A stretch of 64,000 nt of DNA from Spirochaetales bacterium (GTDB lineage Bacteria > Spirochaetota > Spirochaetia > Treponematales > Treponemataceae). Of this stretch, positions 518 through 63,314 are shown one piece after another. Each line of letters opens with the position of its first letter. Position 1 is the first letter of the stretch. Position numbers and translations under genes: made by a program. The stretch spans positions 256,005 through 320,004 of the forward strand of contig JAQXNX010000032.1 in NCBI GenBank assembly GCA_029098225.1. Reading direction: 5' to 3'. The notes under the pieces were generated by a model. That model was not told where the DNA came from. It did no database searches and worked only from the letters and a program-made list of their open reading frames with translations.

Positions 518-693
518 ATTTAAACCTGCAGAAAAAAAATGATTTATATATTACAGAACTTCTATAATATAAAATAATTCTAGCACATTTATTTTTAAAG
601 TGGTATAATTTATTTTACTTTCTTAAACAACACATGAGAAAAAGTCTTTATATTACATAATGTTTTTCAATTTTTATTTTATAGGATGCAAAT

Positions 694-2772
694 ATGGAAA
701 ACTTAAAGGCTGTAATTTCTGTAGACCCGGAAAAATGTGTGAACTGTCATCGTTGTATAGCAGTTTGCCCTTCTAAATTTTGTAATGACGCTTCAGGTTC
801 ATTTGTTAAAGTAAATTCCGAAATATGTGTTGGTTGTGGACGATGTATTGCAGCTTGTGATCATGGAGCAAGAAAAGGACTTGATGACTTTGAAGAATTT
901 ATGAATGCGCTAAAGCATCATGAAGATGTACTTGCTATTGTTGCACCGGCAGCTGCTGCTAATTTCCGTGGCAAAGATCTTGAATTAAACGGCTGGCTTA
1001 AATCAATTGGTGTAAAAGCAGTTTTTGATGTTTCTTTTGGAGCTGAACTTACAACTAAATCTTATGTTGAATTTTTAAAGCATAATAAGCCTGAACTGGT
1101 AATAAGCCAGCCATGTCCTGCACTTGTAAGCTGGATTGAACTTTATAAACCAGATTTAATTCCTTACCTTTCTCCTGCAGATTCTCCAATGGCGCACACC
1201 TTTGCATTAATAAAAAATTTTTATCCAAAATATAAGAATTATAAAATGGCAGCAATTTCTCCATGTTATGCAAAACGTCATGAATTTGATGAAAACGGAC
1301 TTGGAGATTTTAATGTTACAATGGCTTCAATCAGTTCTTATCTGGAAGCAAATAACATTAATCTAGACAGTTTCCCAAAAACTACATACGACAATCCTCC
1401 GGCAGAACGTGCTGTGCTTTATTCAACTCCTGGTGGTCTTTTACGTACAGCAGAACGTTTTGTTCCTGGAATAAGTGCTAAAACAAGAAAAATTGAAGGT
1501 CAGCCGACAATGACCGAATATTTTAAGGAATTGTCTGAATCTCTTGCAAAGGGCAAAAAATGCAACTATCAGCTTGTAGACTGTTTAAATTGTGAACGAG
1601 GCTGTAATTGCGGAGCCGGTACTGTGAATCAAAAAGTTCCTCTTGATGAACTTGAAAATTATATTGAAAAGCGCAGTGAAGCACGAAAAAAGCAGTTAAA
1701 AACAAAAACTCTTTTTGGAAAAAGAAAACTCGAAAAATCAATAAATAAATACTGGAAGAGTGATATTTACACTCGCGAATATACAAACCGAAGTTCGACC
1801 TTCAGTTCTAATATCAGAATACCGGATAAAGAAGAATTACAGAATATTTATCTTATAATGGGTAAAACAAAAAAATCTGATTTTCTTAACTGCGGTGCCT
1901 GCGGATATTCCTCTTGTGAAGAAATGGCAATTGCCATTTTTAATGGAATTAATAAATACGAAAACTGTCACCATTATTTATTAAATGAAAATGTCAGAAA
2001 GCATGAAAAAGAATTAAAAGAAAAGCTTCAGACTTCTGTAAAACACATTACAGACACAAGTGTAAATGAACTTAAAAATTCTCAGGTAAATGTTCAGTCG
2101 CTTGTTCTTAATACAGAAAATATGAACAATGCAGTTTCCAGTTCTTCCGAAGCTGTAAACCTTATGGTAGAAAAAATTAACGCAATCAATACAATTCTGG
2201 AAACAAATGCAGTTGCTGTAGAAGCTTTAGGAAATGCAACTACCGTTGGTAAAACAAACCTTGCAGATGTTTCTGTGCTTGTTTCAGAAATTGAACATAA
2301 TTCTGCCGGCCTTGTAGAAATGAGCCATGTTATTCAGCAAATTGCAAGCCAGACCAACCTCCTTGCAATGAATGCAGCCATTGAAGCCGCCCACGCTGGA
2401 GAATTTGGAAAAGGCTTTGCAGTTGTTGCAGGCGAAATCCGTAAGCTTGCCGAAGATTCAAGTAATCAGGCAAAAAGCATTAATGACGTACTAAATAAAA
2501 TCAAGCAGCTTATTGATAATGCTTATGGAAAAACTGTAAATACTCAAAAAGAATTTGAAAATATTGTAGAATTAACATCGCAGGTAAAAGAACAGGAACT
2601 TCAGGTAAAAGAAGCGGTTTCTCAGGAAAGTTCGAGTGGAGAACAATTAATTGAAGCTATAAAAAATCTACAGGAATCTGAAGAATCCGTAAATTCTGTA
2701 GCTCAAAAATTAAAAACCGAAACCCAGGATGTAATGCTTGCAATTCAAAAATTAGGCAATAATGAGGAGTAA
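694..2772 (+). CDS. [FeFe]-hydrogenase-like sensor fused to an MCP signalling domain (group C, chemotaxis-linked type)
   Basis: N-terminal 2x[4Fe-4S] motifs ([23 protein letters not shown]); H-cluster-like motifs [29 protein letters not shown]; extra FeS motif CGACGYSSC...C; MCP hairpin [38 protein letters not shown]; no transmembrane segment. Confidence 0.88.
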
Positions 2773-2775
2773 TAA

Positions 2776-5022
2776 ATGCAGCCAATTTCATTTAATAAAG
2801 ATTTTCAAACTTTTCGTATAGACACGCCTTCTTCTACTTATGGAATTTCTCTAGTTAATGCGGGCGGAGAAGCTAACGGAAAATATATAGTTCATTCATA
2901 TTATGGTTCTAAGCTTGGTGATGATGATTTTACCTATCTTAGCCGTCCAAAAGAATATTGGTTTGCTGATTCTACAGTTTATAGAGAAAAACATTCTTTT
3001 CTTGATTATATTCCACAGGAAATGCCAACAGATGGAGTTGGAGATTTCAGGGAATCAGCTCTGGCTGTTACAGATAAAAACGGTTGCAACGCTATTGAAC
3101 TCAAATATAAATCACACAAAATTCTACAGGGAACAGAAGCACTTCCGGGACTTCCAGCTGTTTTTGGCACAAAAGAAAATGCTTTTCGTCTGGAAATTAC
3201 CGCAATTGATGAAGTTTTAAATGTAGAAGTTACTCTAATTTATACTGTTTTTGAAAATCTTGATGCCATTATCCGTTCAACACGTATAGAAAACAAAAGC
3301 CAGAATGCAGTTTATTTAAAAAAAGCGCTTTCTGCTGCTTTTGATATTGATGACAATAATTTTGACGTAATTACTCTGCATGGTTCCTGGGCAAGAGAAC
3401 GCCACATTGAACGCCATCCTGTCCACAATGGAAAACAGGGAGTATGTTCAATGAGGGGAGAAACAAGCCATCAGGAGCATCCTTTTATTGCTTTACTTGA
3501 TCATAATACTGATTATAATAGCGGACGTGTATGGGGAATAAATTTTATTTATTCCGGAAATTTTATTGCCGACGTTCAAAAAAATCAGTTTGATTCAATC
3601 CGAATTTTAATGGGAATAAATCCAGATAATTTCTGCTGGAAGCTGAATCCTGGAGAAGCTTTCAACACACCTCAGGCAGTTCTTGTTTTTTCCGATAAAG
3701 GCTTAAATGCTATGAGCCAGACTTTTCATAATCTGTATCGTGAACATCTAATACGTTCGCCTTACAAAAATTCTCCGCGTCCAATTCTAATTAATAACTG
3801 GGAAGCAACCTATTTTGATTTTAATACAGAAAAACTTCTTGATATTGCAAGAGAAGCTAAAAAAGACGGAATAGAAATGCTTGTCATGGATGACGGCTGG
3901 TTTGGAAAACGAAATTCAGATAATAACAGTCTTGGAGACTGGATTGTTAATGAAGAAAAAATAAAGGGTGGATTAAAACATCTTGTAGATGAGGTAAATA
4001 AAATAGGACTTAAATTTGGAATCTGGTTTGAACCGGAAATGATTTCTCCAGATTCAAATTTATATCGTACTCATCCGGATTGGGCAATTCAAATTCCTGG
4101 AAGAATTCCGGGAATGAGCCGTGAACAGCTTGTACTTGACATTACGCGAAAAAATGTCCGCGATTATGCTTACGAAAGCATTGCAAAAATTCTTCGCTCT
4201 GCAAATATTGAATATGTAAAATGGGATATGAATCGTCAGCTTTCAGATATAGGTTCACCTGACCTCTCTGACGACAGAACTGGTGAATTTTACCATCGTT
4301 ACGTGCTTGCATTATATGAAATGCAGGAACGCCTTATTAAAGACTTTCCAAAACTTCTTTTGGAAAACTGTTCAGGTGGAGGAGCAAGATTTGATCCGGG
4401 AATGTTCTATTACAGTCCGCAAATCTGGTGCAGTGATGACACAGATGCTTATGAACGTCTTGCAATTCAAGAGGGAACCGCTCTAATTTATCCTTTATCC
4501 ACAATGGGTGCACATGTTTCTGTATGCCCTAATCATGCAGTGGGTAGAGTAACTCCATTTAAAACCCGCGGTTATGTAGCATTAAGCGGAACTTTTGGCT
4601 ATGAGCTTGATATTACTAAACTTTCACAGGAAGATCGTTCATTAATTCCTCATCAGATAGAACTATATAAAAAATATGGGGATCTGATCAGAAACGGTGA
4701 TTACCAGCGAATATTAAGCTGTTCAAACAGGATGCCCCCGGGAGACACTGATGCTGACTGCTGGGCTTGTGTTTCTAAAGATAAATCAAAAGCCCTGATA
4801 ACTTTTGTTCAGGTTTTAAATCATCCAAATTATAAAAGCCGTTTTATTAAAGTAACAGGCTTAATTCAGGAAGCAAGTTACCGCATAACATTCCCGGATG
4901 AAGACCAGAAGGACTTCCCGGAACAGATTTTAAGCGGAAGAACACTGGAAAATGCAGGTTTTTCAATAAAGCGCGACTGGGGCGATTTTCAGGGAAAACT
5001 TATCTATATAGAACAAATCTAA
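2776..5022 (+). CDS. alpha-galactosidase, GH36
   Basis: Motifs NNWEATYFDF, VMDDGWFG, FGIWFEPEM, YVKWDMNR, ENCSGGGARFD, WCSDDTD. Confidence 0.95.
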   Translation: MQPISFNKDFQTFRIDTPSSTYGISLVNAGGEANGKYIVHSYYGSKLGDDDFTYLSRPKEYWFADSTVYREKHSFLDYIPQEMPTDGVGDFRESALAVTDKNGCNAIELKYKSHKILQGTEALPGLPAVFGTKENAFRLEITAIDEVLNVEVTLIYTVFENLDAIIRSTRIENKSQNAVYLKKALSAAFDIDDNNFDVITLHGSWARERHIERHPVHNGKQGVCSMRGETSHQEHPFIALLDHNTDYNSGRVWGINFIYSGNFIADVQKNQFDSIRILMGINPDNFCWKLNPGEAFNTPQAVLVFSDKGLNAMSQTFHNLYREHLIRSPYKNSPRPILINNWEATYFDFNTEKLLDIAREAKKDGIEMLVMDDGWFGKRNSDNNSLGDWIVNEEKIKGGLKHLVDEVNKIGLKFGIWFEPEMISPDSNLYRTHPDWAIQIPGRIPGMSREQLVLDITRKNVRDYAYESIAKILRSANIEYVKWDMNRQLSDIGSPDLSDDRTGEFYHRYVLALYEMQERLIKDFPKLLLENCSGGGARFDPGMFYYSPQIWCSDDTDAYERLAIQEGTALIYPLSTMGAHVSVCPNHAVGRVTPFKTRGYVALSGTFGYELDITKLSQEDRSLIPHQIELYKKYGDLIRNGDYQRILSCSNRMPPGDTDADCWACVSKDKSKALITFVQVLNHPNYKSRFIKVTGLIQEASYRITFPDEDQKDFPEQILSGRTLENAGFSIKRDWGDFQGKLIYIEQI

Positions 5023-5178
5023 TAGATTAAATAATCAGAGAGAGCCTTATAATAAAAAATTCAAATTCTATAGAGTTTTATACTTTACTAATTTTTTGAG
5101 TTTTTTATAATAAATGAAATGTTCGCATTGGCTTAAAGTAGTTTTCTATTTATGCCGAAAAAGACAAAAGGAGTATTT

Positions 5179-7254
5179 ATGTCTGAATCTGAAACTAACA
5201 AAATGAAAAAGAAGACTCTTTATGTTACTTTAATTGTTCCGGCACTTATTGTTTCTATAATTGGTACAGTTGTAATTCGGCTGGCTCTCTCGCAAGGCAC
5301 TCAGTCAATTATGACAGAAATAGAACGTGAAACTGTTTCTAAAATGCCTGAACTGATGTTCAATGTAATAGAGGAAGAAAAAGACAACTTATTGGGAATT
5401 GCAGAATTTTTAAATGACGAAAATTCTGCTATAGATCTTCAAAATATTGAAAATTCAATTGATCTTAACAGGATTATAAATGAATTTAAATTATTCAATG
5501 CGCTTTATGTTACACCAAGAGGACAGACAATTAAATCATATATAAGCACAGTTATTACCACAAATGCAGAGCGAATGGCTATTGATGCCGCTCTTTCCGG
5601 AAAACCGAAGGTATATGTTTCTGTAAAAGGAAAGGAAGTCCTTGCAGTCTCTGCTACAAAAATGGGAGAAAATGTTCTGGTTCTGGAAAAAGAGCTTTCT
5701 AATACACAGTTTCTTGAACTCCATGCTTCAGAAATGGATGTGGTAATGACAATCTTTGTAGATGATATCCGCGCCTCTACAACTATTAAAGACGCAAATG
5801 GAAATTATCTGGTAGGAACTCTTCTTAATAATGAAGTAATTTATGAACAGGTTTATTCAAAGGGAATTCCTTATAATGGAAACAACATAATACAGGGAAT
5901 TCCATATGTTACAATTTACGCTCCGTTAGCCAACGACGATGACGCTAAAACAATGATTTTTATGGGTATTTCTGTTGGTCATATCAAAGATATATCAAAC
6001 AGAATTGCCAGACAGTCACTTATTTTTATCCTTTTAACAATTTACCTAATTATTTCATTAATAATTGTTGTTATAGCCGCGACAATTATGCGTCCATTAA
6101 AGAAAAACGTAATAGCATTCGGTTCATTAAATGGAAATTCCGGAATTGCAGATATGACAATCCGAATTCCAATAAAGACAAATAACGAAATTGGTTCTAT
6201 GGGAACAGAAATCAATAAGTTCGTTGCAACACAGCAGGATCTTTTGAATAATGTAAAAGAAGCCAGCGATTCTCTGCAGGAAGTTGGTTTAAGTCTTGCC
6301 TCTTCTTCACAGCAGTCCGCAAGTGCCGTTTCTCAAATTATGGCAAATATCGAAAGTGTTAAGCATTCTACAGAAAAGCAGTCACAGGCTTTATACGAAG
6401 TAGAAAATGAACTCAACAAAAACATTTCTGGAATAAGTCATCTTGATGGCCTTATAGAAAATCAATCAGCTGGAATTGTTGAATCTTCTGCAGCAATTGA
6501 AGAAATGATTGGAAATATTGATTCAGTAACACGTTCAATTAATAAAATGGCAGAAGAATTTAAAACTCTTATATCCATTACAGAAGACGGCAAATCAAGA
6601 CAAAATGATGTATCTGTTCAGGTTACAAACATGGCAGAACAATCTAAAAAGCTTGCAGATGCAAACAACGCTATCTCGCAGATTGCATCCCAGACAAACC
6701 TTCTTGCTATGAACGCTGCAATTGAAGCTGCTCACGCCGGAGAAGCCGGAAAAGGTTTTGCCGTTGTAGCAGATGAAATCCGTAAGCTTGCAGAAGATTC
6801 TTCTAAGCAATCAAAAGTAATTAAAGAAAATATTACAGATATTACAAAGAGTATTTCCGGCGTAGTTGAATCTTCAGAGCTTTCTGTAAGAGGCTTTGAA
6901 CAAATTACAGATAAAGTAAGTTCTACAGACGAGCTTGTAAAACAGATTGATAATGCTATGGAAGAGCAGCAGGAAGCTTCTAAGCAGGTTCTTGTTGCCC
7001 TCCACGAAGTTACAGATTCTACGGCTCAGGTTCAGTCTACTTCAAAAGATATTTCGAATGGAGTTCAGCTTGTAAAAACTGCTACAGATAATCTTTCTCA
7101 AATTACAGAAATGGTTTCTGGAAGCATGGACGAAATGGCTGCCGGAGTTACAGAGATTAATTCTTCTACGCAGAATGTTTCTGATCAGGCTACTACAACA
7201 AAGGAAAATATTGATATTCTTCACGGAATTATCAGTAAGTTTAAACTTGAATAG
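5179..7254 (+). CDS. methyl-accepting chemotaxis protein (TM - Cache-like sensor - TM - HAMP - signalling)
   Basis: Two hydrophobic segments, HAMP-like [17 protein letters not shown] core [35 protein letters not shown]; AGGAG SD precedes ATG 5179 (ORF track starts 5152). Confidence 0.92.
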
Positions 7255-21218: not shown

Positions 21219-23117
21219 TTAAACAATAAACTGTTCCACGTGATTATGAATTTTGTCTACAGAATTCATGTTACCGGCTGCAGAGCTGTCTACAAGCGAA
21301 ATTGTATTTTTCATGTTTGCAGTAGCCTCAAAACTTTCTTTTACAGCTGCACGCGTAGATTTTGAAGCCTGAACTACAGCATTCATGGAATCACGAAGCT
21401 TTCCGGCTTCTTCAGTTTCTTCTTCAGCAAGACCACGAATTGCTTCAATTGCTTCTACCATAGCTTCTGAAGCCTGTTTTGTTTCGTTAGCACCTTGATT
21501 CTGCTGAATCATTGCATCATAAATATCTTTTACCAAAAGTGCATTTTCTGAAACATTTTCAGTAATTTTTTCGAACGCTTGTCCGGCAGAAGAAATAGCT
21601 TCTGCACCAGCCTGCGTTTTTTCCATCATTTCTTTAATTTTTACCTGAATATTTCGTGCGCTTGAAGATGAAGAAGCAGCTAGAGATCGAACCTCATCTG
21701 CAACAACAGCAAAGCCGGCACCAAATTCGCCGGCATGGGCTGCCTCAATTGCAGCATTCATCGAAAGAAGATTTGTCTGCGCAGCAATTGTCTGAATAAC
21801 AACAAGCAGTTTTTTAACTTCTTCCGAAACACTCTGAATTTCTTTCATAGTTACAACAGCATGTTCAACAGCATTATTTCCAACTGAACTTCTTTCAGAA
21901 AGATCCATAGAAACTTCCTGTGCTCTTTTTGCAGTTTCTGTAACACTGGAAATATTATCTGTAATTCTTGCGATTGCTCCAGAAATATTTTTTACAGATT
22001 CAGTCTGCTGCGTAATATGAAGTTTTACTGTATCAATACTGTCAGAGAGCATTTTGATGTTTTCTTCGGTAATATCAACCAGTTCATCCTGTTTCTGACT
22101 GTTTTCATCAATTCTGGAAAGAGAATTAGAAACTACATCCAGAGCTCCATTTGCAGTATCTGCAGACTTGGATAAAACTGCAGCAGATTCTGTAACAAGA
22201 GAAGTTTCTGTTTTAAAGTCTTTTATCATGCTCGAAAGCTTGGCAATAAGAGTATTTATGGAAGAAATTAATCCGCCAATATCATCAATTACAGTAATAT
22301 CAATTCGGCGGGTAAGATCTCCGTTATTTGCAATATCGCCTAAAAGCTTTGAAGTAATTTTAATACGCTTTGAAAGTCCTCTCAAAACTGTAAGGAATGG
22401 AATAATACCAATCATAGTAGAAAGAACTATACAAAGAGAACCTTTCTTAAAGAATTCAGTCAAAAGATCACCTTTAAAAACCCCATTATGAGATTCCAGA
22501 AGAATTCCATAAGGAACGGTAATCATATTAATTCCCAGAAAATAAATTACAAGAAAAAATACAAGAATTATAGAAACAGAGATTCCATAAGTTTTCCCCT
22601 TATACGCTGAAATTGAAGAAATACCAAGTCTCTGTCTTTTTTTAATAAGCATATAATCTACAATTTTAATTGCCGTAATTGCAGAAATTCCTCCGAATCC
22701 CATAGCCTGAGCAACTACAAGGAAAACTCTGGAAAAATAATAAACATTGCTTCCATTAACAATTCCAAGAATTACTATAATAATCTGTCCGATAAAAAAA
22801 CCAATAATATTTGCAGTAATAATAAGTCCGATGATTTTTTTGTAACTCTTTATACAGATTCCAATTTCTTCTTCTGTAGCAGACCTGTTTTCTTTTTTGA
22901 TTCTTTTAAGAATCTGATCAAAAGGCTTTGCAAAAAAGTATCCAAGGATAACTGCAATAATTAAAAGCAGGGAAGCAACCATAATATTTGGAAGCGTTCC
23001 ACCCCACATTGCTTCAATCTCATTGTAAATAAACTCCAGCGCAAACCATCTCAACACTAAGACACTTGTATAAGTGACTGACAACAATACAACAACAAAT
23101 GTTCCAAAAACTGTCAT
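21219..23117 (-). CDS. MCP with multi-TM membrane-embedded sensor region
   Basis: About six hydrophobic segments in the first 250 aa, HAMP-like [14 protein letters not shown] core [17 protein letters not shown]. Confidence 0.9.
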
Positions 23118-41115: not shown

Positions 41116-42237
41116 TTATTTAACGAGTTTCACGCAACCATATAAAGTATCATTATAAGTCTTAAAATCTTCAATGATTCTAAAAGCTGTATCAGAAATT
41201 TCTGAAAGTCTTTTTCCTTTTATTATTCCTTCTGCTGCTTCATAATTTTCATAAGCCACCAGAGGGTTAATATATCGCTGCTTTACTTTTAAACTTACAC
41301 AAAAATAACTATCGTTAGTTAGTTCATACTCAGTATGCTCAATTTCTGTCATTGTCCTGAAGGTTTTATAATATTGCTCAAGTCTTTCAGATTTTTTTGC
41401 ATTATCTAATTTCTCAATAACCTCTTTTTCGCTTAAACTCATAAAATCATTTTCAGTTAAAATAAATTCCTTTTCAGCCATGTTCATTATCTGGCCTAAT
41501 AGTTCAAGGGTGAGTTTATTTTCGTTTAATTGAAGAATATGCCCTATCATACAAAAATGACGACAATAAAGTTCTGCAATTTCTAAAGTTTTAAATCCAA
41601 GTTCATCAACTCCGTTTTCATTTTTTAAAATTGTTATATCATCATAACATTTTTTAATTTCTTCAATTTCCCAGCTGCCATCCAGAGCCATTCCCGAAGG
41701 AAACATATACTCAAGACGATCAGCACTAAGACAAGGAATTTCATTATCAGCAATCGGATATATATGATAATCGATAATCTGCTCTGCGCTAAGTCCATCT
41801 TCTGAAAGTAAGTCAGCTAATTTTTTATCATTGTAAATAATCTTTGCAGTCGGCGCTTCTGTAACTGTTTGAGTTAATGCATCGCCTTTGCGAAAATCAG
41901 ATACATGACTAAAAACCGGAGTAGAAACATCATGAAATAAACCTGCAAGAGTCTGTGCCTTATCATGAGTAAAATGCCAGATTATTAATGCAACACCTAT
42001 ACTATGATCAAGACGTGAATAAAAAAATCTGTTTTTATAAAGACGAGTCCAGTCAGTTCCGCATAAAAGCCCAACACCACTTAAACGCTGCATAACAGGA
42101 AGAGAAATATATTTATCCAGAAAATCAGGATAATCCTGAGGCGGACATAAAATATTAAAGTATTCAGAAATGTTATATTCTTTTTGAGGATGAAGCGAAA
42201 GAATTTTATGCCAGTTATAAGGTTCAAAATAATTCAT
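41116..42237 (-). CDS. HD-domain phosphohydrolase (COG1078/YdhJ-like)
   Basis: SRLDHSIGV, GLFHDVS, FSHVSD, SADRLEY; start re-called to ATG 42237; TTGACT-17-TATAAA at 42284-42256. Confidence 0.88.
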   Translation of the reverse strand: MNYFEPYNWHKILSLHPQKEYNISEYFNILCPPQDYPDFLDKYISLPVMQRLSGVGLLCGTDWTRLYKNRFFYSRLDHSIGVALIIWHFTHDKAQTLAGLFHDVSTPVFSHVSDFRKGDALTQTVTEAPTAKIIYNDKKLADLLSEDGLSAEQIIDYHIYPIADNEIPCLSADRLEYMFPSGMALDGSWEIEEIKKCYDDITILKNENGVDELGFKTLEIAELYCRHFCMIGHILQLNENKLTLELLGQIMNMAEKEFILTENDFMSLSEKEVIEKLDNAKKSERLEQYYKTFRTMTEIEHTEYELTNDSYFCVSLKVKQRYINPLVAYENYEAAEGIIKGKRLSEISDTAFRIIEDFKTYNDTLYGCVKLVK

Positions 42238-42321
42238 TTTTTTCCCAGATAGGTATTTATACACTTGACTAATAACCAAGTCAAGCAGTAACTTTAACAA
42301 AAGATTATTATAAAAAAAGGT

Positions 42322-43605
42322 ATGAATTTGAAAAAACGAAGATTATTTTTATCAATTCTTTTATTATTTTTCAATAACATTTTTGCATCAATGTCTGTAG
42401 ACGAATTTGGCTCTGCAGTTAATGTATCTTCATCTGAACTCTATATAACTGATCCTCTTGGAATCGATGTAAAAGCAAGTCCAAGTGAATATGCAGAAAC
42501 AATAATACATCTTCCGGTAAATACACAGGTCAGGCTTATGTCTCTTTATGGACCAGAAACGACTGTATCTAATGAATGGTCTACATGGGATAGCAACTGG
42601 TGTGCTATTTATATTCCTAGTGGAACCGACTATGAAAACGACTATCAGATTGGATGGATATCTAGTCCATATGAATTATGGTGGTCTCCGACAGAGTTTG
42701 ATACATCCAGCTGGAGAGAAACACAACTCCAGAGTTATTTAATGAGCAGCGTATGGGAAATGGAATATCGAAGTAATGGCTCTGTAAAAAGACGTGCTGT
42801 TGTAACTTTTGATAAATATTCAATCAGAGGATTTGAAGTAATTCCTTACGGAACAGCTGGCTTAGATTTAGGATCTTATGAAGCTTTCAGCGGATCAGTA
42901 ATAGAAATAAAAGACAGCAGAGAACTTTCAAACGGAAATAAAAGACTCTCCATTCGGGAAACTTGTTTTTCTTTTGATGACAAGAACGGTACATATTTCT
43001 TTAAAAAAGTAAATATAGGTTCCATTAATGATATGGATATTTTTAAAGAATATGGAAAAGAAAGTTTTGCAATCGGAATGCTTTATTCAGATTCAAGACA
43101 TTATTTCAGAATGTACTCCAAAGATTATTATAATGATAAAACCGTAGCTGATTATGCATTGCTAAACAGTCCGCAGCAAAATAATCTTATGGCAGTTGCA
43201 ATCACATACGGAATTGTTGCAGATGATTATAAATATAAAAATGTACTTTCAAAATACTGGGATCCATTTATTGAAGAATGTGAAAATAATGCAAAAAGAA
43301 AAAACTATTCATTTAGTAAAATAAAAAAAGAAGCAGATTTCTTTAGCATAAATAAAATGTATGTTACAGACGACAAACTGAAATTGCGTAAAACACCGGA
43401 TATGTCCGGAGAAGTTATTACTGTAATGAACTCCAATACTTTTGTTAACGTTATTGGCTATGGAAAAATGGTAAAAATTGACGGAATGCTTTCTGTATGG
43501 GTAAAAATTGAAGTTTGTGAAAATGCAACAGACAGTTCTGGAAACCCGATTCCATCAGAAACAAAAGGCTGGTGCTTTGGTGCATATCTTTCTGATGCAG
43601 GATAA
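42322..43605 (+). CDS. secreted protein with two bacterial SH3-like domains
   Basis: Signal peptide; C-terminal LKLRKTPDMSGEVITVM...WVKI...GWCFGAYL; N-terminal IDVKASPSEYAETIIHLP...GWIS. Confidence 0.7.
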   Translation: MNLKKRRLFLSILLLFFNNIFASMSVDEFGSAVNVSSSELYITDPLGIDVKASPSEYAETIIHLPVNTQVRLMSLYGPETTVSNEWSTWDSNWCAIYIPSGTDYENDYQIGWISSPYELWWSPTEFDTSSWRETQLQSYLMSSVWEMEYRSNGSVKRRAVVTFDKYSIRGFEVIPYGTAGLDLGSYEAFSGSVIEIKDSRELSNGNKRLSIRETCFSFDDKNGTYFFKKVNIGSINDMDIFKEYGKESFAIGMLYSDSRHYFRMYSKDYYNDKTVADYALLNSPQQNNLMAVAITYGIVADDYKYKNVLSKYWDPFIEECENNAKRKNYSFSKIKKEADFFSINKMYVTDDKLKLRKTPDMSGEVITVMNSNTFVNVIGYGKMVKIDGMLSVWVKIEVCENATDSSGNPIPSETKGWCFGAYLSDAG

Positions 43606-43615
43606 TAAAAAAATA

Positions 43616-45919
43616 ATGACTGACAAAGAAAAAGTTTATTGGGGCTCAGTAATTAAAAAAAGTTTTTATTACACAGAATATACTGCCTATGAAATAAATG
43701 AACTTTCTCAAGGAATAATCCTTACAAAATGGGAAAAAACATATGATCAGGAAGATTGTGCCATAGGAAGACTGGAAAGAATATATTTTAAAACTGAATG
43801 GATTCTCCCGGTTATAAATTTAATCCGTTCAATACCTAAAAAGGAACTTGACCGGGGAACAGATGATTCCGGTTATGGTGAATGGGAAAGAAAAATTTCG
43901 TTAGCTTCAGATAACAGCACAGAAAAATCCGAAACAACTATAGTTTTTACAAACCGGGATTATGACCGCTCATCACCAAAACTGGAAATTTATATCTACT
44001 CTGATAAATCTGAAAAACTGAATGACGAACTGTCTCCTTACGCTGTCTGGGAAAATGACAGATTAAATAATATTTATCTTCCTCACGGCCACCATACTGA
44101 AGGTTATATAGAATACATAGAACCAATTCTAATTAAACTGGAAAAATATGTTCCGCAGAAAGAACGTAAAAAAATAAATTCGCCGCTTGGAAAACCAAAA
44201 ACAGAACTGGAAAAAATTACAGAAATCTACGAACATAGAATTTCGGAAAATCCGCAGAAAAAAAATGAACCGTATTTGCAATGGATAAAAAAACAAACTG
44301 ATAATAATTATTACGACATCACAGCTCTGGTATTTTTTGAAGGAAAGCTTAACTATGAAAAAACACTTTCCTGCAATGTATTCCAGATGGCAATGATAAA
44401 TAAATACTTCAAACAATGGTCTAGTGACATAAAAACGATTCCATACAAAAAAGAAAATATTGATTTAAAAATAGAAATTTCTGATAAATCTGAATATGAA
44501 AATTATTTAAACGTTAAAATTTTCATATTCGAAGATGAAGACGATTATTTTGAAATTCCAGTTTCAACTGCTGCTGAACAAAATCCATTTTATGATTTAT
44601 GCAGTTTTACAGAGGCCGAAAAGATTTCCACTCATTACCTTCGCGGACTTCATGCATTTTTAGAAAACGAAAATCTTGTCCTTAAATGGTATTACGAAAA
44701 TTACAAAATAAGTGATGAACACTCAAATCAGTTTTTAATTGAAAAAACTCAGGTTTCACAGTTTTTAAAATTATTTAAAGAGCTTGAAAATATTTATTTA
44801 TTATGGCATGGAGATTTTGGAGGAGAATATATTAATAATCCAAATGTTTTCCTTGAATACGGCTATCGCGAAAAAGGTGATTTTGAATTCAGATTGCCTG
44901 GTTCAACAGCTCTTCCTGTTACAGATTTTTATGTCAGGAATAATAAAATAAACGGTTCCGAAAGCCTGCTTTCTCTGAAATGCTTTGGAGGAGATTTTTT
45001 ATCTGAGCTTCAGAAAATAATAAAATGTGTAGAAAAAGCTTTTTATGAAAATCCTGCTGCCTTCTTTAAGAAAGATTATGCAAAAGTTTACTGGGAACTT
45101 GACTACGATTATGCAGGACAATATAGCGTCCATTATTTTATTTGGCAATTTGAAGGTCATAACAAAAATAAAAAAATAAAGCTTCCGAAAGAATTAATTT
45201 ATAGAATTGAAGAATATTCTTTCTGGTGGTGGCAGGCAACAGATCATAATGAAAAACTTACATTTGAAGATGTTCGTCTTTTCTTTGAAATTAATCCCGC
45301 TTCTGATAAAACTGGCTTAGGTACTGTAGAAATAAATTTTAAGAAAATAATAGATGCTTCTGTAAAAGCATATTTTGATTTATCCGATGGAAACAATCTT
45401 CCAAAATCTTTTTATGGGAACACTTGCAAAGAAAGGATTGTAAGAAAAGTTGAAATTAATAAAACCCCTGATTTAAAATATCGTTCAAGATTTTTTTCTA
45501 AAAAAGATAAAATGAAACCTTCAAATTATATTTTCATAAATTATTATGAAAGCAAATATCTTGAAATTGAAAAAAATGAAGAAAAATTCTGGGCAATAGA
45601 AAAATGTTATTTTGATGATTTTAAAAATTCTTTGAATGAAATTTATGAATATTTAAAAATCAAAAAAAATAAAATCGCAAAATTACTTGAACCGGAACTT
45701 AAAAACATATACGATAAGAAAGGTTTTCATATTGATATAACTGAACAGAGGCTTGCAATAAACTGCGATATAAACCTTAAACCGGATGATTATATTCCTC
45801 TGGACATTACAATTTATTCAAAATCAGGATTTGACTGCGACTGTATTTCTTTAATAGGTTCAAGAAAAATACTTCTCTGGCAGATGGAAATTTTAATCGC
45901 AGCATTAAATAAAATTTAA
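43616..45919 (+). CDS. large AT-rich hypothetical protein
   Basis: 767-codon open frame, aromatic/Lys/Glu-rich, no signal peptide; start re-called to ATG 43616 to avoid overlap with the SH3 gene. Confidence 0.75.
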   Translation: MTDKEKVYWGSVIKKSFYYTEYTAYEINELSQGIILTKWEKTYDQEDCAIGRLERIYFKTEWILPVINLIRSIPKKELDRGTDDSGYGEWERKISLASDNSTEKSETTIVFTNRDYDRSSPKLEIYIYSDKSEKLNDELSPYAVWENDRLNNIYLPHGHHTEGYIEYIEPILIKLEKYVPQKERKKINSPLGKPKTELEKITEIYEHRISENPQKKNEPYLQWIKKQTDNNYYDITALVFFEGKLNYEKTLSCNVFQMAMINKYFKQWSSDIKTIPYKKENIDLKIEISDKSEYENYLNVKIFIFEDEDDYFEIPVSTAAEQNPFYDLCSFTEAEKISTHYLRGLHAFLENENLVLKWYYENYKISDEHSNQFLIEKTQVSQFLKLFKELENIYLLWHGDFGGEYINNPNVFLEYGYREKGDFEFRLPGSTALPVTDFYVRNNKINGSESLLSLKCFGGDFLSELQKIIKCVEKAFYENPAAFFKKDYAKVYWELDYDYAGQYSVHYFIWQFEGHNKNKKIKLPKELIYRIEEYSFWWWQATDHNEKLTFEDVRLFFEINPASDKTGLGTVEINFKKIIDASVKAYFDLSDGNNLPKSFYGNTCKERIVRKVEINKTPDLKYRSRFFSKKDKMKPSNYIFINYYESKYLEIEKNEEKFWAIEKCYFDDFKNSLNEIYEYLKIKKNKIAKLLEPELKNIYDKKGFHIDITEQRLAINCDINLKPDDYIPLDITIYSKSGFDCDCISLIGSRKILLWQMEILIAALNKI

Positions 45920-45975
45920 AATACATTAATTCCCGCTACCCCGCCAATAACGCGGACAATAAATATGGATGAAAT

Positions 45976-47757
45976 ATGAAAAAAATAGTAGCAATTATTT
46001 TTGCATTCGTTATCGCAGGTACAGTTTTTGCAGACGATGGAGGTTCTTACAAGCCCGAAGACTGGACATATGGCAATATATATGTAAAAGAGCCTAACGA
46101 CAAAATCGCTTTAGAAAAAGAACTGATAATAGTTGAGCAGACCAGTACATGGTATAGCGATGAAACAATAAGTGAGAAAGTTCACGGAAACGAAGTAACC
46201 GCAATTTTTGGTTTTAAAAACACTACTCCACAAAAAGTTGTTGTACCTTGTGCCTTTCCTGTTGTAGTAACTACACAGGTTGTCGTAAACAGCGATGGCA
46301 CAGTTTCAAATTATATAAATACTGGTAACGGTTTTTCTTCAGATATAAATTTATTGTCTTTCGCAATGGGGAAAAAACTGGAAATAAATAGCAATGATTA
46401 TTCATACAATTTAAACACAGATAAAAATGAATTCTTTGCTCTGGATAAAAAACTAAGAACACTTAGTATTAATCAATATCTTTCTGAACTGAAAAAATAC
46501 AATACTGAATATGGTGAATTAAATCCATGTCAGATAATACAAAATGGAAAACCTGTTCAAATTCAAACAGTTGGAATAGAAACTTCAATAGAAAAAAATA
46601 GTGAATACACAGAAGATCTGCAATATTATAATTCATATTACCGCTCTGAAAATACAGATTCTGAAGTTTATACACTCAAAATGGTTCTTCATTTTTACCA
46701 CGAATTGACTTTTGAACCTTCAGATTCTTCTGTGCTAAATGTTCATTATTCTATTTATACAGAAAAAAGAAATTACCGCTCAATTAATTACAATTTTTAT
46801 TATGATATTTCTACAGGAGGAACCTGGAAAGGAAATATAAAATCCTTTGTTATTATTACAGACAGCGGAATCACTTTTGAAAATTCTGAACAAAGATTCG
46901 AAAACTCAGATCTCGGCGAGTTAGGCAATTCTTACAGTACTTATATTTATGCGACAGAAAATTATAAACCTCAGAAAAATGAATATTTCATTTTTAATAC
47001 AACAGATATGTTCCAGGAATCAAATTTATATTTACCAAACAATGATGGACCACAGGATTTTGTTACTAATATCAAGGCTTCATCAACACTTCCCGGAACA
47101 TACAAAATGGCCTGCGATAACAGCGGTGACTGGGCAAATATGGACAATAATTTAATAGATTCAAATTACGCAGCAAAAACTTCATTTGATGGAAATCTTT
47201 TAAACGGCTGGGTTGAAGGTGTTAAAGGCGATGGAATTGGAGAATGGATTGAATTCACTCTCACAAAAAATGCGATAGGACCATTTGCTACAAACGGGCT
47301 ACGACGTTTTGGCGGTTCAAAAGACTATGAAAATATGCAATTCGACAAAGGAAATTATGATTACCCGGACTACAGTATTTATAATAAGACAGGCGCACTC
47401 GATGGCACATGGAAAGCAAACAATCGTATAGAATCAATGACTCTAAGTAACTCAGCTGGTAAAAAAATCTCAACTCTATATTTTACCAATACTTTTCCTG
47501 AATTATATAACGCAAAATATACCTGGCTTGCAATTAACTCGATAGTTAATCCAATGGTATTAGGAAAAGGCACATACAGAATGACTATAGAAAATGTTTA
47601 TAAAGGCGAAAAATGGGATGATACAGTTTTAGGTGAAGTATGGTTTATTCCTATCAATAATTTAGCTGCAAAAATTATTATGCAAGACAAGTTTTTCAGC
47701 ACACCTTTAAATAACTTTATCAAAAAATGTCTGTCTGTTTACCATTTTGTAGAATAA
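45976..47757 (+). CDS. secreted DUF4424-like protein with C-terminal NADase-type/discoidin-like glycan-binding domain
   Basis: Signal peptide; IALEKELI...FKNTT...AFP...YDISTGGTWKGNI; FDGN...WVEGVKGDGIGEWIEF...NNRI...VYKGEKWDDTVLGEV. Confidence 0.65.
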   Translation: MKKIVAIIFAFVIAGTVFADDGGSYKPEDWTYGNIYVKEPNDKIALEKELIIVEQTSTWYSDETISEKVHGNEVTAIFGFKNTTPQKVVVPCAFPVVVTTQVVVNSDGTVSNYINTGNGFSSDINLLSFAMGKKLEINSNDYSYNLNTDKNEFFALDKKLRTLSINQYLSELKKYNTEYGELNPCQIIQNGKPVQIQTVGIETSIEKNSEYTEDLQYYNSYYRSENTDSEVYTLKMVLHFYHELTFEPSDSSVLNVHYSIYTEKRNYRSINYNFYYDISTGGTWKGNIKSFVIITDSGITFENSEQRFENSDLGELGNSYSTYIYATENYKPQKNEYFIFNTTDMFQESNLYLPNNDGPQDFVTNIKASSTLPGTYKMACDNSGDWANMDNNLIDSNYAAKTSFDGNLLNGWVEGVKGDGIGEWIEFTLTKNAIGPFATNGLRRFGGSKDYENMQFDKGNYDYPDYSIYNKTGALDGTWKANNRIESMTLSNSAGKKISTLYFTNTFPELYNAKYTWLAINSIVNPMVLGKGTYRMTIENVYKGEKWDDTVLGEVWFIPINNLAAKIIMQDKFFSTPLNNFIKKCLSVYHFVE

Positions 47758-62081: not shown

Positions 62082-63314
62082 TTGTTACAACTTCAGGTAA
62101 TAAACTTCCGGAAAGGAAGCTACATAGTAGTAGAAGGAAAAGAAGATTCTGCTAATTTTTATATTATTCAACAAGGTACTGTAAGATCACAGAAAGTCTA
62201 TGGTGGTATGCCTCCTGTAAATTATGGACCTGGAGACTTCGTTGGCGTTGTTCCATGTATGTCTGGCCATGCCCAAATTGAAACAGCCGTTGCTGTTACA
62301 GATGTAGTTGCAATTTCTGTAAGAAAAGAACAATATCCGGAACTTATTTCTCAAAATACTCCCGTTGCTCTTAAAATAATCAAAACCTTTTCTAACCGAA
62401 TGCGTGTTATGAACGAAATGCTTTCTAAAGCAACTCTTAAATCAACAACACGCGACGATTATGAACAGCTTTTTTATGTAGGCCAATTTTATGAAAAAGC
62501 AAGAATGAATAATGTTGCTGCCTTCGCCTACTACCAATATTTAAAAACTCATCCTACTTCAGAAAATCTTGAAATAGCTAAACAACGCTTTGTTGCTTTA
62601 AAACAAACTGCTCATCCGGTATTTCTGGAATCTACTCCAGATTTAACCAGAGCTTATCCTAAAAACACAATGATTTTTTCCGAAGCTCAAAGTGGTGCTG
62701 ATATGTTTATTATTCAGCAGGGCGAAGTTACAATTTCTAAAATTGTAGATGGAAATGTCGTTACATTTGCAATTCTTGGAAAAGGCGATATGTTTGGCGA
62801 AATGGCATTACTGGAAAATAAACCTCGTTCTGCAAGTGCTATTGCCCACAGTGATTGTGTTCTTATGGTTGTAAACCGTTCAAACTTTAATCAAATGGTT
62901 TCTACACAACCGCAGATGATAGCAAAACTTACAACAACTCTTGCCGACAGACTCTGGTCTATGTACCGCAATCTTGATAATGCAAATATCGTAGATCCTT
63001 TATTCAAAATGCTTGATATGCTTTTACTTCAGCTTGAGAAACAACGCAAGCATATAGATTTCCATTCCGCACTTAAACAGCCTTATCAGACAGAATACAC
63101 TCCTCTGGATTTAGCAAATATGTGCGGAATTCCATCAGAAAATCAGCCACTTGCAATAGGTAAGTTCATGCAGGAACCAAATTTCCAGATTCAAAAAGAA
63201 AAAATCTTTATAAAAGACATGCTTGAACTTGCAAAGCAGGTTGCTTTCCTTAAAAAACAGCAGGCTATTTCTAACAGTATCAATAATTCAGAAAAAGCAA
63301 CTGGTGTTCTTTAA
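62082..63314 (+). CDS. tandem cyclic-nucleotide-binding-domain protein (Crp/Fnr-like)
   Basis: Two cNMP domains (FYIIQQGTV...GDFVG; MFIIQQGEV...GDMFGEMALLENKPRSASA); TTG start after AAGGAG. Confidence 0.85.
   Translation: MLQLQVINFRKGSYIVVEGKEDSANFYIIQQGTVRSQKVYGGMPPVNYGPGDFVGVVPCMSGHAQIETAVAVTDVVAISVRKEQYPELISQNTPVALKIIKTFSNRMRVMNEMLSKATLKSTTRDDYEQLFYVGQFYEKARMNNVAAFAYYQYLKTHPTSENLEIAKQRFVALKQTAHPVFLESTPDLTRAYPKNTMIFSEAQSGADMFIIQQGEVTISKIVDGNVVTFAILGKGDMFGEMALLENKPRSASAIAHSDCVLMVVNRSNFNQMVSTQPQMIAKLTTTLADRLWSMYRNLDNANIVDPLFKMLDMLLLQLEKQRKHIDFHSALKQPYQTEYTPLDLANMCGIPSENQPLAIGKFMQEPNFQIQKEKIFIKDMLELAKQVAFLKKQQAISNSINNSEKATGVL

Follow-up and report, generated by a model that had tools for sequence, protein, structure and literature searches.

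A soluble [FeFe]-hydrogenase-like chemoreceptor of gut treponemes as a candidate receptor for H2

Within a 64,000-nucleotide stretch of a Spirochaetales genome (assembly GCA_029098225.1, contig JAQXNX010000032.1, positions 256,005 to 320,004 of the forward strand; hereafter the window), one gene encodes a protein that joins an [FeFe]-hydrogenase-like domain to the signalling hairpin of a methyl-accepting chemotaxis protein (MCP). We read this fusion as a cytoplasmic chemoreceptor that uses a sensory-type [FeFe]-hydrogenase as its input module and responds to H2, a reading to which we assign a probability of about 0.6. The class itself has already been predicted; what the analysis of this gene adds is synteny, in relatives, with the H-cluster maturation genes hydE, hydF and hydG, a survey of the interchangeable outputs of the sensor half, an active-site pocket like that of the enzyme TamHydS, a direct helical connection between sensor and hairpin, and a mismatch in hairpin length with neighbouring receptors.

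The domain matches of the 692-residue protein are far beyond chance. In Pfam, Fe_hyd_lg_C covers residues 78-307 (E=1.4e-33, profile positions 2-244 of 245) with 117 bits against a gathering cut-off of 22.1, the iron-sulphur (FeS) family PF04060 covers residues 398-425 (E=3e-8), and MCPsignal, on the same polypeptide as the hydrogenase domain, covers residues 508-671 (E=4.9e-29, 101.8 bits against a cut-off of 34.6). Together with the Fer4-type matches of the N-terminal F-domain, whose two cluster motifs are C15/18/21/25 and C45/48/51/55 with the invariant C30 in addition, these recover the whole architecture that an earlier note, written from the sequence alone, had put forward as FeS motifs, H-cluster motifs and an MCP hairpin in one chain. 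The same note had seen no transmembrane helix, and hydropathy agrees: the peak 19-residue Kyte-Doolittle mean is 1.11, compared with 3.34 in the neighbouring membrane MCP. An AlphaFold2 (AF2) model built on 71 family members gives residues 1-440 a hydrogenase fold with a predicted local distance difference test (pLDDT) value of ~90, and residues 426-689 a helical hairpin. Foldseek matches the model to the [FeFe]-hydrogenases CbA5H, DdH, CpI and HydABC over ~440 columns (best E=3e-20), and a phmmer search of the PDB returns Aer2 and MCP structures among the sequence matches to residues 433-674.

The H-cluster motifs of the H-domain were placed by phmmer alignments to the solved group A enzymes 7qv7_D, 7q4v_A and 8a6t_A, which read MPCTCKSYE opposite motif 2 and EVMTCPEGC opposite DCLNCERGC. 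The departures from catalytic consensus previously noticed in SQPCP, SPCYAKRHE and DCLNCERGC are borne out by these alignments, at residues 138, 189 and 296. Because the motifs align with group A enzymes, all four ligands of the [4Fe-4S]H cluster can be assigned as kept (C141, C191, C300 and C304, equivalent to CpI C300, C355, C499 and C503), together with the Lys and Glu of motif 2, K194 being the counterpart of the CN-binding Lys358. The hallmarks of catalytic groups A and B (Cys299, Met353 and Met497) are absent and give way to Pro140, Ser189 and Leu298, and the catalytic-family NCBIfam models score far below their cut-offs (TIGR04105, 141 against 450; TIGR02512, 112 against 406). The counterparts of E279, E282 and R286, farther along the proton pathway than C299, differ between two phmmer alignments. 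Substitutions of this kind had been said to typify sensory enzymes, and published residue frequencies bear this out: only 17% of putative sensory [FeFe]-hydrogenases have Cys at the C299 position, against 43% with Ala and ~10% each with Pro and Ser; at M353 they have Gly, Ser or Thr (Ser ~32%), and M497 is not conserved (PMC10055695).

These features hold across the family. The 120 homologues listed from a search of a large protein database, to which all counts out of 120 refer, are 55-99% identical, nearly all full length (~690 aa) and identical in domain set; an exact look-up of the window's own protein gave no record. Q139, P140, C141 and P142 occur in 120/120, as do C191, K194 and E197 and, in motif 3, D296, C297, L298, C300, G303 and C304, while S189 is present in 119/120; the eight cluster cysteines of the F-domain are kept in 118-120 members, and C400, C403, C408 and C425 are invariant throughout the alignment. 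Besides the MCP tip, the H-domain is the best-conserved region, ranking above the arms of the hairpin. Two further cysteines beyond the 16 expected cluster ligands, C30 (781-783) and C297 (1582-1584), are also invariant in the 120 homologues and occur together in 125 of 150 wider representatives of the sensor half; C297 lies within the signature DCLNC, one residue before the Leu equivalent to M497.

Gene order in relatives argues that the receptor carries a real H-cluster. In four metagenome-assembled genomes (MAGs; loci L009, L015, L018 and L034) a divergent hydE is followed by the fusion, hydG and hydF, with gaps of 80-110 nt or overlaps; L009, L015 and L018 are close mutual relatives, and L034 is diverged, its HydG and HydF being 72% and 38% identical to those of L009. 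The cultured Treponema rectale (L083) has another order, with a divergent hydF-hydG pair, the fusion and a convergent hydE. In L009, L034 and L083, respectively, HydG scores 916, 911 and 919 bits, HydE 529, 536 and 555, and HydF 460, 545 and 542, far above the NCBIfam equivalog cut-offs (312, 255 and 326). No second H-domain gene was found in the flanks of the hydEFG-linked fusions. Finding two arrangements in lineages that have diverged speaks for a receptor that is served by the maturases and would thus hold a genuine [2Fe] subcluster, and the site would presumably be occupied in the source organism as well. A lack of hydEFG, which the earlier note had set as a ground for refutation, is contradicted in these relatives.

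The output half resembles that of ordinary receptors. Its most conserved part is the hairpin tip, which has 39 of 41 residues in common with the tip of the neighbouring membrane MCP, and residues 475-687 of the fusion align without gaps to residues 436-648 of this Cache/HAMP receptor (213 aa). Given the shared tip and the gap-free hairpin alignment, the fusion should dock to the same CheA/CheW, and the two further MCP genes in the window would imply that a chemotaxis system exists. No Pfam match to a PAS domain (at E<=0.01) or a HAMP domain was obtained in the 692-residue protein, in which the last cluster ligand leads straight into the signalling helix. Family members place the tip Glu 142, 145 or 146 residues after the last cluster Cys, followed by a C-arm of mostly 118-122 residues, whereas in the window's membrane MCPs 168-169 residues (~24 heptads) follow the tip Glu. 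In the Alexander-Zhulin scheme we take the arms of the fusion to be ~34H and those of the window's membrane MCPs ~48H. One genome thus encodes two receptor length classes with near-identical tips.

The sensor half also occurs with other outputs. Queried with residues 1-440, an exhaustive phmmer search of 1.84 billion cluster representatives yielded 739 matches at E<=1e-30, and in the best 150, each representing a cluster at 50% identity, the match (41-61% identity to the query) always lies at the N terminus of proteins of 271-1629 aa. By local phmmer classification, these 150 carry an MCP output in 50 cases, a histidine kinase with or without receiver in 53, a receiver only in 3 and a GGDEF domain in 1; 7 are stand-alone (<500 aa) and 36 fall under other. 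Pfam on the C-terminal extensions of a 50-protein sample gave MCPsignal 18, HATPase_c 22, HisKA 16, PAS_9 16, Response_reg 13, Hpt 6, SpoIIE 3, the diguanylate-cyclase sensor domain PF24820 3 and GAF_2 2. Irrespective of output, the Pro/Ser/Leu pocket triple is present in 124 of the 150 representatives, the four Cys ligands in 149 and the Lys in 143. Because constancy of a domain across swapped standard outputs classically marks it as a sensor, we regard the sensor half as an interchangeable input module. Among MCP-fused members the hairpin varies in length, which suggests fusion or adaptation to different chemotaxis systems.

As to host range, named homologues come mostly from MAGs labelled 'Treponema sp.' or 'Treponemataceae', besides the cultured T. 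rectale, and carry generic annotations such as '4Fe-4S binding protein', 'chemotaxis protein' or 'iron only hydrogenase large subunit-like protein'. When one genome per GTDB species was scanned, at least 560 loci proved to encode a relative of the sensor; of the best 80, every one is an MCP fusion in a Treponema or Spirochaetaceae MAG. These MAGs derive from rumen, from deer, goat and horse gut, from Hadza human gut and, going by MAG names, from termite gut. The window's own sequence is present in pig and sheep gut metagenomes, and these matches and the closest homologues narrow the spirochete host proposed beforehand to a gut Treponema. Some Treponema MAGs hold tandem or second copies of the fusion gene (L031, L074, L081; L054 with L062; L034 with L082): in L031 two copies ~50% identical stand side by side, and two MAGs have two separate loci. 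Locus L006 and protein P0093, from MAGs labelled Bacteroidaceae or Bacteroides, have a Treponema-type fusion with 55-64% identity to Treponema members, probably on a mis-binned contig.

Hydrogen sensors of this kind were reportedly proposed in termite-gut treponemes by Ballor, Paulsen and Leadbetter in 2012, under a title that includes the words 'hydrogen sensors encoded by treponemes'. The closest named class is HydDB [FeFe] group 'C2 Chemotactic (putative)', whose role is entered as undetermined in the 2016 scheme of Sondergaard, Pedersen and Greening (PMC5037454); the fusion is the same in kind, a sensory H-domain with an MCP output, assigned here by domain architecture, and the listing confirms the earlier statement that MCP-linked forms had been predicted as subgroup C2. 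More broadly, the protein has what is described for putative sensory HydS-type enzymes, namely an N-terminal 2x[4Fe-4S] domain, loss of C299 and a C-terminal Cx2Cx4Cx16C motif, the last of which unifies sensory groups C and D (PMC8163306, PMC13104023). With TamHydS of Thermoanaerobacter mathranii (group D/M2e) it shares all three of these features, the absence of PAS and the replacement of M353 by Ser and of M497 by Leu, a likeness in described features, while in HydDB any MCP-linked form would count as C2; TamHydS stands alone, whereas the module of the fusion is covalently joined to an MCP hairpin. TamHydS assembles an H-cluster, takes up [2Fe]adt spontaneously and is CO-tolerant (PMC8163306), and it combines high H2 affinity with low turnover and changes its secondary structure on exposure to H2 (PMC8163306, PMC13104023). 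TmHydS of Thermotoga maritima (group C/M2f) resembles the fusion in cluster complement, lost proton-relay Cys and proposed role in H2 sensing; it differs in having Ala/Gly/Ser at C299/M353/M497 and a PAS domain after the C-terminal cluster, where the fusion has Pro/Ser/Leu and runs straight into the MCP helix. The PAS domain of group C/M2f is therefore absent from the fusion, although many kinase-fused relatives do have one. The choice of Thermotoga HydS as the example of a sensory enzyme thus stood as regards sensory-type substitutions in general but not as regards the pocket, since the Ser/Leu pair is that of TamHydS and Thermotoga HydS has Gly/Ser (PMC8163306).

Likenesses extend to unrelated systems. 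The regulatory [NiFe]-hydrogenase HoxBC with HoxJ (HydDB group 2b) likewise uses a slowed hydrogenase as an H2 sensor on a standard output, but its metal site and fold are unrelated and its output is a separate histidine kinase that controls transcription, not motility. HemAT and Aer2 share with the fusion the lack of a membrane anchor and a gas- or redox-responsive cofactor domain N-terminal to an MCP hairpin; they sense O2 through haem in a globin or PAS fold, whereas the fusion would use an organometallic H-cluster and three [4Fe-4S] clusters.

A plausible course of signalling can be drawn from these parts. HydE, HydF and HydG would install the [2Fe] subcluster on the [4Fe-4S]H cluster held by C141, C191, C300 and C304, and Pro140, by breaking the canonical proton relay, would keep turnover slow. 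The state of the H-cluster would then be passed through the C-terminal Cx2Cx4Cx16C domain, whose last ligand C425 caps the signalling helix of residues 426-567, either by redox change of the C-terminal cluster or by a purely conformational change. A shift of this helix or altered helix dynamics would reach the hairpin tip and modulate CheA through the CheA/CheW set of the membrane MCPs, so that swimming would be biased along H2 gradients. H2 would presumably be the physiological signal, with either an attractant or a repellent sign. The steering by H2 or redox level that the earlier note had envisaged is supported in silico, with function, H2 as opposed to redox, being what we infer.

Several observations weigh against this reading of the fusion as an H2-responsive receptor. 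A literature search found no experimental study, biochemical or behavioural, of any MCP-fused form, in line with the earlier remark that no functional demonstration was known for this type. In TamHydS, H2 reduces an N-terminal cluster but leaves the C-terminal one unreduced, which tells against a simple relay of electrons to the output (PMC13104023), and in CpI M497L the [2Fe] site is not properly integrated (PMC10055695). Of 63 related loci whose downstream sequence was long enough, only 4 have hydEFG next to the fusion; in the window, neither hydE, hydF or hydG (Pfam on ~40 other open reading frames (ORFs) and tblastn with Treponema HydE/F/G) nor cheA, cheW, cheY, cheR or cheB (Pfam on the same ~40 ORFs of the 64 kb) was found. 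The arms of the fusion are ~17 heptads long compared with ~24 in both membrane MCPs, and co-assembly in one array is not assured; so short a receptor with a bulky head might instead form a cytoplasmic cluster of its own. No strict methylation consensus occurs in the fusion, only one relaxed and weak site, Q644-E645, which 92 of the 120 members have.

Two side points belong here. From CpI M497L one might expect Leu298 to preclude [2Fe] insertion; this was rejected, as TamHydS has the Leu natively and matures (PMC8163306). At residues 489-490 (2158-2163) the fusion has Asn-Leu where most members and the neighbouring MCP have Glu-Glu ('AIEEMI'), and if this is a methylation site it has been lost in the window's orthologue; with one relaxed site only and the Glu-Glu pair replaced, adaptation by methylation is uncertain.

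The two-cluster F-domain, fully conserved here and the usual place of electron entry and exit in hydrogenases, would also suit a redox (energy-taxis) receptor, in which the F-clusters would exchange with the ferredoxin pool and report the intracellular redox poise, the H-cluster acting as a slow vent or reference. The cytoplasmic location of the fusion agrees with this, as does the reduction by H2 of the N-terminal but not the C-terminal cluster in TamHydS, and the earlier note had left room for 'H2 or redox level'. For redox taxis, however, a plain FeS or flavin sensor would suffice, whereas all H-cluster ligands and Lys194 are kept and the costly HydEFG system is linked, which points to a [2Fe] site with its known H2/H+ chemistry; moreover, H2 diffuses freely, so a cytoplasmic location is no bar to sensing external H2, and we consider a redox receptor unlikely. 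H-clusters, like FeS clusters, are reactive towards O2 and CO, and a sensor of O2, CO or oxidants, in which inhibitor binding or damage at these clusters would trigger avoidance in a strict anaerobe, has some appeal. In Treponema denticola a di-iron protein serves as an O2 sensor for chemotaxis, and in two loci the fusion has a divergent hemerythrin gene upstream. TamHydS reacts rapidly with O2 to a distinct Hair state (PMC8163306). Sensory-type enzymes are nevertheless reported to be unusually CO-tolerant, destructive sensing is ill-suited to a reversible response within seconds, and the hemerythrin neighbour is confined to a single homologue cluster (L086/L087), all of which makes such a sensor quite improbable.

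Eukaryotes have hydrogenase-like proteins that lack a [2Fe] site, and the H-domain might, like Nar1/NARF, hold [4Fe-4S] only and be a generic FeS redox or structural module. The poor integration of [2Fe] in CpI M497L and the absence of hydEFG from the 64-kb window could be taken in this sense, but the fusion has hydE, hydG and hydF as neighbours in T. rectale and four MAGs, neither the CN-binding Lys nor the pocket residues vary among the 120 homologues, and TamHydS, whose Ser/Leu pocket is the same, spontaneously incorporates [2Fe]adt; there is little chance that the domain is such an apo form. With fold and ligands of the H-domain complete, the protein could finally be a working hydrogenase merely tethered to the chemoreceptor array or to a coiled-coil scaffold, with no signalling role. 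Against this, Pro replaces the proton-relay Cys in every family member, the scores lie far below the catalytic-group cut-offs, the module also occurs joined to kinases, receivers and phosphatases, and the MCP tip is as well conserved as in bona fide receptors, which leaves this possibility very remote. The hydEFG linkage and the strictly conserved [2Fe] pocket tell against the O2/CO, apo and tethered explanations.

For the H2-responsive receptor, a more specific idea is that some gut treponemes, T. rectale for example, keep the maturation machinery mainly or only for this protein, which would work as a Nernst-type meter of H2 partial pressure (pH2), its cluster redox state equilibrating with H2 and setting kinase activity. 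We hold this to be rather doubtful; if true, it would be the first molecularly defined bacterial receptor for H2-taxis, positioning spirochetes relative to H2 producers and consumers. The only demonstration of H2-taxis so far comes from the archaeon Methanococcus maripaludis (PMC3817446), H2 sensing by HydS-type enzymes is still called 'putative' in reviews (PMC8924675), and a 2026 study of TamHydS ruled out one proposed signal route (PMC13104023). An MCP fusion joins such a sensor to the best-understood bacterial signalling output and could offer a direct readout of H2 sensing. In the fermentations of rumen, hindgut and termite gut, where the gene family is common, H2 is a central currency, and a receptor for it would help to explain how motile spirochetes position themselves beside H2 producers or consumers. 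Practical leads are a cultured carrier, T. rectale, with hydEFG around the gene, and a sensor that is exchangeable among MCP, kinase and phosphatase outputs.

Table 1. Features of the fusion gene and neighbouring genes in window coordinates.
Feature	Position (strand)	Residues	Remarks
Extended -10-like element	601-609		TGnTATAAT-like; read from sequence, low confidence
Shine-Dalgarno-like AGGA	683..686 (+)		7 nt before ATG; read from sequence, low confidence
Coding sequence of the fusion	694..2772 (+)	692 aa	Soluble [FeFe]-hydrogenase-like chemoreceptor; ATG start
F-domain (N-terminal)	712..870 (+)	7-59	Pfam Fer4 families; two [4Fe-4S] motifs
H-domain (H-cluster binding)	925..1632 (+)	78-313	PF02906; PDB phmmer and Foldseek matches; pLDDT ~90
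Motif 1, SQPCP	1105..1119 (+)	138-142	C141 [4Fe-4S]H ligand; P140 replaces proton-relay Cys (CpI C299)
Motif 2, SPCYAKRHE	1258..1284 (+)	189-197	C191 ligand; K194 and E197 kept; S189 replaces M353
Motif 3, DCLNCERGC	1579..1605 (+)	296-304	C300 and C304 ligands; L298 replaces M497; C297 extra Cys
Helical segment	1633..1884 (+)		AF2 helices 317-335, 340-352, 367-373, 379-388; pLDDT 85-93
C-terminal cluster motif	1885..1968 (+)		Cx2Cx4Cx16C; C400, C403, C408, C425; Pfam FeS PF04060
Hairpin N-arm	1969..2394 (+)	426-567	One continuous helix directly after ligand C425 (AF2)
Hairpin tip	2341..2463 (+)	550-590	Tip Glu570; CheA/CheW-binding region in characterised MCPs
Hairpin C-arm	2398..2760 (+)	569-689	~17 heptads; candidate methylation site Q644-E645
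Glycoside hydrolase family 36 (GH36) α-galactosidase	2776..5022 (+)		3 nt downstream of fusion; Pfam Melibiase E=7e-152
Membrane MCP	5152..7254 (+)		sCache_3_3 + HAMP; same tip, longer arms (~24 heptads each); 2.4 kb from fusion
Second membrane MCP	21219..23117 (-)		Long-armed

Around the fusion gene, the GH36 gene starts so close to the stop codon (Table 1) that the two are likely co-transcribed. Sheep-gut metatranscriptome contigs match parts of the fusion gene, the GH36 gene and the next MCP at >=95% identity and so speak, though weakly since they are assembled contigs, for transcription of the fusion gene. This adjacency recurs in a 99%-identical strain (L001) and is not conserved in 80 other loci; it is lineage-specific and not part of the receptor system. 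A search for a conserved operon in 80 related loci found no neighbour family in more than 9, apart from the fusion itself and antisense ORFs. The first membrane MCP likely signals through the same kinase as the fusion. A scan for consensus promoters and terminators gave no significant site, promoter-like sites being fewer than in shuffled sequence, and an Rfam scan of the window gave no RNA family at gathering score, and hence no rRNA or tRNA.

Some local peculiarities were seen on the way. One metatranscriptome contig (X29, depth ~10) joins position 799 to 2608 and skips 1808 nt of the fusion gene, a join that could reflect a chimera in the assembly or a variant with a deletion. The Cache/HAMP MCP of the 99%-identical strain, on an ENA metagenome scaffold, appears as two called genes of 407 and 249 aa (L001:14496-16570), while its counterpart in the window is one 700-aa ORF; the split is either a frameshift or pseudogene or an assembly error. 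Elsewhere, the hemerythrin gene divergently upstream of the fusion (L086:571-1044 and L087:356-832, one lineage) and a gene for a flavodoxin/Fer4/cupin protein convergently downstream of it in another lineage (L084:12086-13411) may be redox- or O2-related neighbours. Farther along the window, the product of 62082..63314 (+) has two cyclic-nucleotide-binding domains (E=1e-37) but lacks a recognised output domain. At 41116..47757 a run of large ORFs (394-803 aa) has Pfam matches only to SH3_3 and an F5/8-type-C-like segment, and its G+C content falls to 0.29 against 0.33-0.46 elsewhere in the window; it may be a surface-protein or acquired region.

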